From Neodothiora populina (Eukaryota), in assembly GCF_041146345.1 (NCBI RefSeq), contig NW_027191411.1:1116001-1180000 (forward strand): DNA of 64,000 nucleotides, in the 5' to 3' direction. This document shows, piece by piece, positions 35,548 to 37,443 of the stretch. The notes beneath the pieces are model-generated. The model was not told where the DNA came from, searched no databases, and was given only the letters and a program-made list of their open reading frames with translations. The translations under genes were made by a program, and so were the position numbers. The first letter of the stretch is position 1; every line of letters starts with the position of its first letter.

Positions 35548-37443
35548 TCACGCACACAAATTCATCCTGATCTTCGCTACAGTGGCAGTGTCAAAACACA
35601 GGTAATCGGTCATATACGTGTCGATGCCCCCAAAGACCTGGTCGAACATTTCGATAGTGGCGACCATATATTCCTCCCGCGCCTGCACCACATTTGCTAC
35701 CGCTGCAACGTTGCCAGCAAGCCCCGGCTGAGCAAGTAATCTTCGAGTCGCGTGCGAGCCCCAGTCCATATTGCTGTCCAAGTTGTTGAGAGCATATTCC
35801 TTCGCAATCGTGGAGGTGTCGCAGCCTGCAAGCAGCATAAGTAGCATTGCAGTGATACCGGTCCTGTCTTTGCCAGCGGAGCAATGTACTAAGATCGGGG
35901 TTGGCGAGTCCTGTGCAAGATGCTCAAAGATAGGGCGAAAAGCAGACACTCCACATTTCAGAGTATGCTGATATGCAGCCGCATAGCCCTTCGCCGCAGT
36001 TGCGTACTCTTGAAGCCGCGCTTCCCTTTTCTCAGGTAGCCAGTCTTCATCACTGAACACCGGAATCGCGACCCTCTCCACGTCTTGCAGCAGTAGCGCG
36101 AATGTTGAGCGAGACTCTTCCATGAATTGAGCAGCACTGTCTTTGCGATGCGGAACTTCCTTGGTGCTATGAACATCATTGTGGACCTCAATCGGACTGC
36201 GCAAGTCAAATAATTTCGTAATACCGAGCTTCAGAAATGCTTTGCGCCCTAGCTCTGTTATTTTCGACGGATCGCCACTACGGAAGACCAGGCCGCGTTT
36301 GACAATCTTGTTCCCGATGTCTCGAAACATGCGCACCCCTTCAATGTCAACAAATGGAGGACTAGGGTACAACACATCTTGAGCTTTAAGTCGTTTGTTC
36401 TCCTCGTGAGTCTGTTCACATGTAAAGTCGTTGTCAGCACCAGTTGACGGCGACAGTTCCCGAAAGGAGTGGAAGTAATCCACAATTGGGGGGCGTTCGG
36501 TGTCATCCACATCGCAGAAATCGTCAGTCCAAGGAAGGAACATCTTCTCGGTGTTCTTCATCACAAAGCTCCCTCGATGGAGTCGTTTCTCCGCTGTACT
36601 GAGAATTGCTTTAGCCATAGTGGTAAGCTCTCTCAATGCCTTGTGAGCATTCTGCCTTTGGCCGACATCGACTTCGGCAATTCCCAGCAGACCGATAAGA
36701 CTGTAGGTATCTATCAAGGTCCCGATCTCTACCCCATACCCTACTGGGAATGACAGCTTCTCAAGAAGCTCTCGGCGTGCAGCGAATTCACCGGCTAGTG
36801 GTTGTCGAAATCCTGCCAGGTCTGGCCAATACATGTTCAAGAGAGGTCGTGCAAGGATTTCTGTAACTCTACCACCCTCATGAGGACGGACTTCACCGCT
36901 TGCTGACTTGAAAGGTCTGTCGAAACATGCTCGGACCATTGAAATATCCTCAAGTAGTAGCAGTGGTCCTAGTATTCCAATGAGGTGCGCCGAGGAAGGA
37001 TCAGCCGTGTCTCCGTCGAGGAACGCGACAATGTCACCTAAGTTCTTTGTCGCCAGCAATCCGCGCCATAATGCGTCACCCTTGCCTCGACTTGAACCAA
37101 GCTCGGGGGCGATGTCCTTTCGTTGGATTACTTGTGCACCTGCATCGGCAGCCACCTGCCCGGTTCCATCCACTGAATTAGCGTCAACAACGAACAAGTG
37201 AGAGACAACTTTTGCTTCGATCAGAGGTCTAACGGTATGCTCAATTACGCCTCCGATGGTAGACGCGACTTCCTTGCCTGGTATTATCACTGTGACGACC
37301 AATCGTTTCCTCTGTACCGTAGTCGCAAGTTCATCTATGTCAAAGTCTCTGTGAGAAAACCGGCGCTCTTTGAGCCAATCCTGGAATGCGTTCGAGTTGC
37401 TGTTCTTGATAGTGTTCTCACAAGAGATAGCAACAGGGGCCAT
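35548..37443 (-). CDS. Fusion protein: glucosyl/mannosyl-3-phosphoglycerate synthase (GpgS/MpgS, GT81) plus tyrosine-phosphatase-like (Y_phosphatase3) domain
   Basis: N-half: VVDANSVDGT, GKGDALWRGL, FLDGD, GGRVTEILARPLL, QPLAGEFAARRELL, GYGVEIGTLID, DVGQRQNAH. C-half: FRDIG, VFRSG, FDLRS, HCSAGKDRTG. One uninterrupted ORF; first ATG at 37443. Confidence 0.9.
   Translation of the reverse strand: MAPVAISCENTIKNSNSNAFQDWLKERRFSHRDFDIDELATTVQRKRLVVTVIIPGKEVASTIGGVIEHTVRPLIEAKVVSHLFVVDANSVDGTGQVAADAGAQVIQRKDIAPELGSSRGKGDALWRGLLATKNLGDIVAFLDGDTADPSSAHLIGILGPLLLLEDISMVRACFDRPFKSASGEVRPHEGGRVTEILARPLLNMYWPDLAGFRQPLAGEFAARRELLEKLSFPVGYGVEIGTLIDTYSLIGLLGIAEVDVGQRQNAHKALRELTTMAKAILSTAEKRLHRGSFVMKNTEKMFLPWTDDFCDVDDTERPPIVDYFHSFRELSPSTGADNDFTCEQTHEENKRLKAQDVLYPSPPFVDIEGVRMFRDIGNKIVKRGLVFRSGDPSKITELGRKAFLKLGITKLFDLRSPIEVHNDVHSTKEVPHRKDSAAQFMEESRSTFALLLQDVERVAIPVFSDEDWLPEKREARLQEYATAAKGYAAAYQHTLKCGVSAFRPIFEHLAQDSPTPILVHCSAGKDRTGITAMLLMLLAGCDTSTIAKEYALNNLDSNMDWGSHATRRLLAQPGLAGNVAAVANVVQAREEYMVATIEMFDQVFGGIDTYMTDYLCFDTATVAKIRMNLCA

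Follow-up and report, generated by a model that had tools for sequence, protein, structure and literature searches.

A fungal gene joining a Solirubrobacterales-type GT81 synthase domain to a PF13350 phosphatase domain: a probable bacterial-fungal chimera in Pezizomycotina

Introduction

Two enzymes are needed for the two-step routes to glucosylglycerate and mannosylglycerate, a synthase followed by a dedicated phosphatase: GpgS with GpgP, and MpgS with MpgP (summarised in PMC13326497). The synthases belong to glycosyltransferase (GT) family GT81, which a 2020 survey of GT-A glycosyltransferases lists among the prokaryote-only families (PMC7185993). Here we describe a gene of the Dothideomycete fungus Neodothiora populina, located on the minus strand (35548..37443) of a 64,000-nucleotide stretch of contig NW_027191411.1 (the entire stretch is hereafter called the window), whose product would join a GT81 synthase acquired from bacteria of the Solirubrobacterales type to a phosphatase of fungal descent.

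The bacterial synthases closest to the fungal one are those of Patulibacter and Solirubrobacteraceae (for example P0043), which share with it the RQNxH register of the metal-site histidine loop, an LPW...ERPP tail and several local signatures, but differ in having a further GT2 domain (PF00535/PF13641) at the N-terminus, in lacking a phosphatase, and in the GC content of their loci, which among the matches listed is 0.64-0.735 as against 0.51 in the fungal gene. No biochemical characterisation of these proteins was found in the literature searched. In P0043, P0133, P0138 and L029:558-3903, the Solirubrobacterales GpgS forms the C-terminal domain of a GT2+GT81 protein, and the gene for a NodS-like methyltransferase lies immediately upstream (L029) or is part of the same protein (P0138). 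This combination of GT2, GT81 and methyltransferase is a hint that these bacteria may build a methylated glycan on a glucosylglycerate primer.

Rubrobacter xylanophilus MpgS (GT81; PDB 3f1y, 3kia and 3o3p, the last being a complex with guanosine diphosphate (GDP)-mannose) has the same RQN-x-H register and is the best solved relative in sequence and in fold (TMt 0.85), but it is a single-domain bacterial enzyme and falls in a neighbouring clade of the family tree; it accepts both GDP-mannose and GDP-glucose. Mycobacterial GpgS (Mycobacterium hassiacum 7pdo, Mycobacterium tuberculosis 4y6n) shares with the fungal protein its family, its fold (E 1e-55 to 1e-48, template-modelling score TMt ≤0.94), the DXD motif and the acceptor-phosphate loop G-R-x-T, whereas its histidine register is RAHRN and it belongs to the other half of the family tree. 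The mycobacterial phosphatase GpgP (Rv2419c) is presumably a member of the histidine-phosphatase family. For M. tuberculosis GpgS, two papers state that Asp136, the equivalent of the second Asp of the DXD motif, coordinates Mg2+ (PMC2581804) and that the acceptor phosphate is contacted by G184, R185 and T187 (PMC7185993), and the former also states that the product of mycobacterial GpgS primes methylglucose lipopolysaccharide.

Bacteria have independently fused GT81, in the same N-terminal position as in the fungal protein, to a HAD phosphatase (P0221, GT81+HAD Hydrolase_3) and to a histidine phosphatase (P0171, GT81+His_Phos_1), and MgsD of Dehalococcoides is likewise a bifunctional synthase-phosphatase. 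These fusions have the same order, synthase then phosphatase, as the gene described here and differ from it in the phosphatase superfamily, which in the fungal protein is the Cys-X5-Arg family PF13350. The relatives of that second half, the stand-alone fungal and PtpB-type enzymes (1ywf, 8dhi), have the same family assignment, the P-loop HCxAGKDRTG and the same fold, but no fused glycosyltransferase, and the stand-alone fungal proteins are only 30-40% identical. Other domain combinations were also seen among bacterial GT81 proteins: N-terminal universal stress protein (Usp) domains in P0166, P0167, P0182, P0186, P0188, P0192, P0202, P0207, P0220, P0222, P0226, P0228 and P0234, and, among the GT81 representatives P0199 and P0191, one fusion to PTS EIIA and one to a class-I glutamine amidotransferase; all these architectures look regulatory.

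Results

The gene and its two domains

The gene consists of a single unbroken open reading frame (ORF) of 631 aa (P0001), which starts with ATG, requires no intron and has an N-terminus in agreement with those of its relatives; a first-pass annotation made from the letters alone had called it intron-free, and this was borne out. Its parts, all on the minus strand, are as follows.

35548..37443, minus strand: whole gene, GT81 synthase, linker and PF13350 phosphatase, with the stop codon at 35548-35550 (from the ORF, domain searches and an AlphaFold2 model)
36481..37389, minus strand: GT81 glucosyl/mannosyl-3-phosphoglycerate synthase domain, aa 19-321, the part that was probably acquired (from NF010496, 3f1y, Foldseek, tblastn and trees)
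37009..37017, minus strand: DXD-type metal/nucleotide-sugar motif D143-G-D145, inside LDGDT (D143 and D145 invariant in alignment A1)
36859..36876, minus strand: GGRVTE, aa 190-195, putative acceptor-phosphate loop (G190-E195 invariant in alignment A1)
36643..36657, minus strand: RQNAH, aa 263-267, putative C-terminal metal-site histidine loop in the Thermoleophilia/Rubrobacter-type register (H267 invariant in alignment A1)
36349..36480, minus strand: synthase tail (LPW...ERPP) and flexible linker, aa 322-365 (ERPP conserved in bacterial relatives; low predicted local distance difference test score, pLDDT)
35554..36348, minus strand: PF13350 (Y_phosphatase3) cysteine phosphatase domain, aa 366-630, probably of fungal ancestry (from Pfam, PDB and tree)
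35863..35883, minus strand: predicted catalytic P-loop C521-X5-R527, inside HCSAGKDRTG (from the translation, aligned with HCFAGKDRTG of PtpB)

Residues 19-321 matched the glucosyl-3-phosphoglycerate synthase model NF010496 of NCBIfam with 315.5 bits, above its cut-off of 262 (E 3.1e-94), which places them in GT81, a family of retaining glycosyltransferases. Among solved structures the closest in sequence was 3f1y of Rubrobacter (E 1.6e-63), followed by mycobacterial GpgS, and a tblastn search with the Patulibacter protein P0043 hit the window at 36475-37389 with 55.6% identity over 306 aa (E 2e-82). The AlphaFold2 model of the whole protein had a mean pLDDT of 88.3 and a predicted template-modelling score (pTM) of 0.59, and Foldseek superposed its GT-A fold on solved GT81 enzymes (3kia, TMt 0.85, E 1.3e-25; 3e26, TMt 0.94). 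D143-G-D145, G191-R192-V193-T194 and H267 were all invariant in alignment A1, and the catalytic motifs of the family appear intact. The first-pass annotation had put a synthase domain at 36570-37380, which corresponds to residues 22-291 and lies inside the GT81 domain, and had named four motifs, all of which were found in the translation (VVDANSVDGT at 85-94, GKGDALW at 120-126, LAGFRQPLAGEF at 209-220 and RQNAH at 263-267). The observation itself, a GT81 synthase ORF with its motifs among fungal genes, is thus confirmed far beyond chance.

The synthase may be a GpgS or an MpgS, using glucose or mannose: its sequence does not decide between them, as it shares only ~36% identity with its closest characterised relative when the structures are aligned, and the first-pass annotation was right to leave the product open. 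A protein atlas look-up of P0001 gave actinobacterial GpgS as the nearest large clusters, with scores of 0.84, and serves as a lead only.

Residues 366-630 belong to Pfam family PF13350, whose cut-off of 22.2 bits they exceed with 162 bits (E 3.1e-47), and contain the Cys-X5-Arg P-loop. Against the PDB this half matched PtpB (1ywf) and a protein tyrosine phosphatase of Clostridioides difficile (8dhi) at 2.5e-13, and its fold was superposed on these two phosphatases with a TMt of 0.68-0.74 in Foldseek. The linker at residues 335-354 is disordered in the model, the pLDDT being <50 at residues 335-344 and 346-354. No homology to the known GpgP/MpgP families (HAD and histidine phosphatases) was found in the C-terminal half, and as PF13350 it can, judged by family membership, only work like GpgP and not belong to the HAD or His_Phos_1 families.

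Phylogeny of the synthase domain

A FastTree analysis of 150 rows and an IQ-TREE analysis (LG+C20+F+G4) of 75 rows and 320 columns were used to place the synthase half. Out of 343 hidden Markov model (HMM) hits, 23 were dropped for covering <240 model positions, and bacterial rows were thinned at 62% identity; the 75 rows are a hand-picked subset, dense near the fungi. In the FastTree analysis, 38 eukaryote-type rows formed one clade (99), sister to P0043 (99), and this pair was nested in rows labelled Solirubrobacteraceae and Solirubrobacterales. In the IQ-TREE analysis, the 28 fungal rows formed one clade (100/100), which was joined first by seven Patulibacter-like rows (100/99) and then by seven Solirubrobacteraceae rows (99/99), so that the recipients are nested with support within the putative donor clade. 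A tree constrained to keep the fungi out of the group of all 27 Solirubrobacterales-type bacterial rows was rejected by the approximately unbiased (AU) test (delta lnL 63.7, p=0.0015). Three signatures, MVRxCFDRP, FRQPLAGEFAARR and DGDTxDPxxAHL, are common to the fungi and Patulibacter but absent from the other rows displayed, and they point the same way as the tree. Because the AU test rejects taking the fungi out, the nesting of the synthase in Solirubrobacterales-type Thermoleophilia appears secure, and the maximum-likelihood tree with GT81 sequences that the first-pass annotation had proposed as a check thus supports its claim of a horizontal origin from Actinobacteria.

That claim had been worded as a Rubrobacter/Thermoleophilia-like source. 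The Thermoleophilia part holds; Rubrobacter is not the nearest, since the Patulibacter and Solirubrobacteraceae proteins are closer and the sole Rubrobacter row (L074) lies in the neighbouring clade of the IQ-TREE analysis, where it would be a neighbour and not the donor. The motif contrast drawn by the first-pass annotation was seen in the HMMER alignments, which show RQNRH in Rubrobacter MpgS (3f1y) and RAHRN in M. hassiacum GpgS, and the 150-row tree is split cleanly by it into an R-Q-N-x-H half, with the window, Solirubrobacterales and Rubrobacter (RQNRHQ in 13 rows, RQNAHK in 11 rows, and others), and an R-x-H-R-N half with Streptomyces. As the motif divides this tree in two, RQNxH is a valid clade marker on these alignments, though of a broad half of the family and not of Rubrobacter specifically.

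Database searches gave the same order of relatives. In an exhaustive HMMER search of 1.84 billion representatives with the synthase half, four fused fungal-type proteins (63-65%) were followed directly by P0043 of Patulibacter minatonensis, and no other eukaryotes ranked above bacteria. A scan of bacterial and archaeal genomes returned at least 600 stretches, of which 80 labelled bacterial loci were kept; among the matches listed, metagenome-assembled genomes (MAGs) of Solirubrobacterales were best (46-49%), Streptomyces (43-45%) and a Rubrobacter MAG (41%) ranked lower, and no Patulibacter genome locus was present.

Origin of the phosphatase domain

When the phosphatase half was searched alone, its best stand-alone relatives were proteins of Teratosphaeria, Meristemomyces and Peltaster (39-40%, E ~1e-48), followed by those of Leotiomycetes, Sordariomycetes and Eurotiomycetes; the named matches were fungal and came from across Pezizomycotina, and the first bacterial name was Nocardiopsis with 31% identity (E 2e-16). 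A quick tree of 58 rows separated 56 fungal rows from two bacterial-type rows across a long branch (98), with the fused phosphatase domains within the fungal radiation, a weak test given just two bacterial-type rows. Because the nearest relatives of this half are stand-alone fungal genes, the gene is best read as a bacterial-fungal chimera, in which the phosphatase half would be of fungal origin and the synthase half alone bacterial.

A rival reading is a transfer of the whole two-domain gene from a bacterium that already held a GT81-PF13350 fusion, and the facts that PF13350 is common in Actinomycetota, where the Nocardiopsis homologue occurs, that PtpB is the best PDB match and that bacterial sampling was limited could be cited for it. 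Yet a scan of 48 bacterial GT81 representatives with several domains found PF13350 in none, no PF13350 gene lay within 3 kb of GpgS in the 80 bacterial loci among the matches listed (best E 2.8), every PF13350-bearing match of the whole-protein search belongs to the fungal clade, and the phosphatase half is nearer to fungal stand-alone genes than to any bacterial one by the E-values given above. We therefore regard the import of a ready-made fusion as highly improbable.

Two PF13350 proteins labelled Quercus suber in nr (P0274 and P0275) nest in the 58-row tree among proteins of Meristemomyces, Salinomyces and Hortaea. This placement among rock-inhabiting Dothideomycetes probably reflects fungal contamination of the cork oak assembly.

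Distribution among fungi and intron footprints

In a word-indexed search with the whole protein, 34 clusters (P0002-P0035) preceded any bacterial protein, and 33 of these carry PF13350; behind them came Patulibacter and Solirubrobacteraceae proteins with 50-57% identity over the synthase half. The named carriers amount to 11 species in three classes of Pezizomycotina: the Dothideomycete Cladosporium fusiforme, the Eurotiales Aspergillus lucknowensis, A. nanangensis, A. heteromorphus, Penicillium sp. IBT 18751x, P. atrosanguineum and P. maclennaniae, the lichen fungi (Lecanoromycetes) Pseudevernia consocians, Psora crenata and Lecanora helva, and Aspergillus ellipticus, of which a fragment was matched in the search with the phosphatase half. 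No well-annotated model ascomycete is named among the 34 clusters, which are a ranked list and not a genome scan, and since these names are missing the occurrence in Dothideomycetes, Eurotiales and Lecanoromycetes may be called patchy. The family is not broadly eukaryotic in the ranked lists, and the broad, species-tree-congruent spread in eukaryotes that would speak for vertical descent was not seen.

Within the fungal clade, the IQ-TREE analysis recovered Lecanoromycetes (99/89), Eurotiales (100/99) and a Cladosporium group (100/100), and the window's own group joined the Cladosporium group, both being Dothideomycete, at 89/86; the phosphatase-domain tree repeats these class-level groups of the synthase tree. 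Such class-level groups in both trees are what would be expected if the gene was gained once, long ago, and lost many times since. The evidence supports a transfer that would be ancient and shared by three Pezizomycotina classes and not a recent gain of this genome, and we infer a single ancient transfer with losses.

The transfer from bacteria may also have been real and the patchiness due to later fungus-to-fungus transfers of the fused gene, with the lineage of the window perhaps among the recipients. The named carriers are indeed few and scattered (four Aspergillus, three Penicillium, one Cladosporium and three lichen fungi), P0014, P0026 and P0030 fall outside the named class-level clades, and the weak backbone among the fungal subclades (86/46, 89/86, 93/46) leaves room for such movement. 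The class-level clusters are, however, what vertical descent predicts, the phosphatase domains repeat them, and an apparent intron site at residue 485 is common to these groups, so that we consider a later spread between fungi unlikely as the cause of the pattern.

The evidence for this intron site, and for a second one, comes from protein predictions. In 13 of the 34 fused-family matches homology is lost exactly at residue 485 of the window's protein, and in five more at 481-497; at the break, all seven sequences displayed continue with V, as read-through of a GTN splice donor would. In the lichen lineage, RQ is followed at residue 265 by S[K/E/Q] in all five sequences displayed, a pattern consistent with an intron that splits the Asn codon (A|GT[A/G]AG). 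Introns in the orthologues are thus suggested, at residue ~485 in P0007-P0011, P0014, P0017-P0026 and P0028 and at residue 265 in P0034, P0036, P0038, P0122 and P0123, while the copy of the window is without both. The two halves are asymmetric in this regard: the widely shared site lies in the fungal-derived phosphatase half, and the bacterial-derived synthase half appears intron-free save for the phase-1 intron in the RQN-H loop, confined to the lichen-fungus lineage.

Genomic setting

The gene lies between two ordinary fungal genes, as the first-pass annotation had said.

32898..34940, minus strand: protein kinase (Pfam Pkinase 5e-25; GC 0.50 and GC at third codon positions (GC3) 0.51, like the focal gene)
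39168..40859, plus strand: cytochrome b5/molybdopterin (Moco) sulfite-oxidase-like gene (Pfam)

The best named matches of the sulfite-oxidase-like neighbour were those of Dothideomycetes sp. NU459 (81%), Dothideomycetidae sp. 11243 (77%), Elasticomyces (75%) and Tothia (69%), which places the window in Dothideomycetes. Elsewhere, the window encodes a dynein heavy chain, a glycoside hydrolase family 35 (GH35) beta-galactosidase, a major facilitator superfamily (MFS) transporter, PAP2, a poly(A) polymerase and a trypsin, and it sits on a 2.02 Mb contig with the dynein and other eukaryotic genes. The focal gene has a GC of 0.51 and a GC3 of 0.52, with its halves at 0.51 and 0.52, and the GC3 of the neighbouring ORFs is 0.49-0.68, whereas the 80 bacterial loci with relatives have a GC of 0.63-0.735 among the matches listed. 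The base composition is therefore ameliorated, being like that of the neighbours and unlike that of the bacterial loci. Together with the flanking eukaryotic genes, the in-frame fungal-type domain and the apparent introns of the orthologues, this argues for genuine integration in the host.

These data bear on the idea that the gene is an ancient eukaryotic one, inherited vertically and lost almost everywhere, or else a product of bacterial contamination or chimeric assembly. The first part could draw on the fact that absence from other eukaryotes was judged from ranked hit lists and not from genome scans, but the fungal clade is nested in a single bacterial order-level clade by the AU test given above, bacterial sequences stand directly after the fungal family in the exhaustive search, and the GT-A survey has GT81 as prokaryote-only (PMC7185993). 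For the second part, the base composition is that of the fungal neighbours and far from that of the bacterial loci, several carriers' genes lie on contigs of 1.9-4.9 Mb from named fungi in independent assemblies, and orthologues appear to contain introns. The sequence data thus suggest that the gene is not contamination, nothing in them suggests a chimeric assembly, and both parts of this idea are hardly to be credited.

Some further features of the window may be recorded. The cytoplasmic dynein heavy chain (7947-21248, minus strand) is one uninterrupted ORF of 4434 codons. The GH35 beta-galactosidase (4662-7282, plus strand) consists of two adjoining ORFs (4662-5864 and 5897-7282), a split consistent with either a short intron or a change of frame at the boundary of its domains 2 and 3. 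The best match of the sulfite-oxidase-like protein was at 81% and none was at 100%, whereas P0001 itself was matched; the gene model stored for it may not be identical with the plain ORF used as query. A 935 aa protein of a lichen MAG (cf. Caloplaca sp., P0473) combines tetratricopeptide repeats (TPR) with a sulfite-oxidase-like protein and is probably a merged gene model.

Discussion

The explanation that we regard as likely is a chimera of a Solirubrobacterales-type GT81 domain and a native PF13350 domain, which arose after a single entry into early Pezizomycotina and serves the two-step synthesis of a glycoside. A Solirubrobacterales-type gene, nearest to the C-terminal domain of the two-domain proteins of Patulibacter, would have entered an early member of Pezizomycotina once, and the synthase would there have been fused to a native PF13350 cysteine phosphatase. 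The fusion would then have been inherited, and often lost, in Dothideomycetes (with the organism of the window), Eurotiales and Lecanoromycetes. In the first step, the synthase half would transfer glucose or mannose from a nucleoside diphosphate (NDP)-sugar to 3-phosphoglycerate, and in the second the tethered Cys-X5-Arg phosphatase would strip the phosphate to leave glucosylglycerate or mannosylglycerate. This glycoside would probably serve as a compatible solute under drought, salt or nitrogen stress.

Several points weigh against this explanation. The 55-row Solirubrobacterales-type clade that contains all the fungal rows and their relatives has a support of only 83/86 in the IQ-TREE analysis. 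Holding the 14 Patulibacter-like and Solirubrobacteraceae rows together without the fungi costs 16 lnL and was not rejected (p=0.183), and because of this result the exact sister or donor lineage inside Solirubrobacterales, and with it the sistership to Patulibacter, is not secured by the sequences; the groups in both AU tests were, moreover, picked after seeing the tree. Many rows are metagenome proteins classed as fungal only by their nesting, PF13350 or intron-like breaks, and bacterial sampling was incomplete, with no Patulibacter genome locus among the matches listed. The fused phosphatase domains form two clades in an unresolved polytomy, in a tree with just two bacterial-type rows. On the functional side, PF13350 enzymes are named as protein phosphatases and not as sugar-phosphate phosphatases, and the mutual placement of the two domains is of low confidence (pTM 0.59, disordered linker), so that their geometry is not interpretable. 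Stress-response elements (STRE, AGGGG/CCCCT) occur twice in the first upstream kb as against once per kb window-wide, which gives no signal of enrichment upstream of the gene in this comparison with the whole window.

As for function, the synthesis of glucosyl- or mannosylglycerate in two steps seems most likely by analogy with the GT81-HAD and GT81-histidine-phosphatase fusions of bacteria. A two-step logic is suggested by the retention of the fusion in all but one of the 34 clusters and by the similar bacterial GT81-phosphatase fusions; the coupling of the two activities and the identity of the product would follow from this analogy. Alternatively, the halves may not be a synthase-phosphatase pair at all, in which case GT81 would make a phosphorylated primer for a larger glycan, like GpgS in mycobacteria, and PF13350 would act on proteins or lipids or have a regulatory part. 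The closest bacterial relatives are fused to GT2 and fused or adjacent to a NodS-like methyltransferase (P0043, P0138 and L029), a context suggestive of polysaccharide building and not of a free solute, and the solved PF13350 members are annotated as protein tyrosine phosphatases. The fungal gene has, however, kept the GT81 domain alone, as no remnant of the bacterial N-terminal GT2 domain was detected in the window (best E 0.12, elsewhere in the window), and its conserved phosphatase fusion mirrors the GT81-HAD and GT81-His_Phos_1 fusions of bacteria. We find the primer role rather doubtful, while giving it some weight. The fuller reading of the two-step synthesis is that stress-tolerant ascomycetes, among them Dothideomycetes living on rock, Lecanoromycetes that form lichens and some species of Aspergillus and Penicillium, make glucosyl- or mannosylglycerate with a chimeric enzyme of a Thermoleophilia-derived GT81 synthase and a native cysteine phosphatase. 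It would be the first eukaryotic branch of GT81 and, after HAD and histidine phosphatases, the third independent recruitment of a phosphatase superfamily to the second step. We put this forward tentatively, at somewhat less than an even chance. The product would have its role as a compatible solute in fungi of dry, saline or lichenised habitats.

To our knowledge, solutes of the glucosylglycerate/mannosylglycerate class have not been reported from fungi. No paper that deals with GT81 in fungi, with its descent from bacteria or with the phosphatase fusion was found in the full-text literature searched, most subscription journals lying outside it; a 2026 preprint on carbohydrate-active enzymes (CAZymes) of lichens counts GT81 in some lichen fungal genomes and goes into no further analysis. 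Transfer from a bacterium to a fungus and fusion of a synthase with a phosphatase are both known, and the GT81-PF13350 chimera of fungi is a new form of each.

If this reading is correct, the gene would represent a new compatible-solute pathway in fungi of drought, salt, rock-surface life and lichen symbiosis, and some fungi would produce a sugar acid that protects against stress and has so far been known from prokaryotes alone. The gene would also show cleanly how a bacterial domain can be domesticated when it is joined to a host domain that brings in the missing second step, and the hypothesis is directly testable with one recombinant protein.

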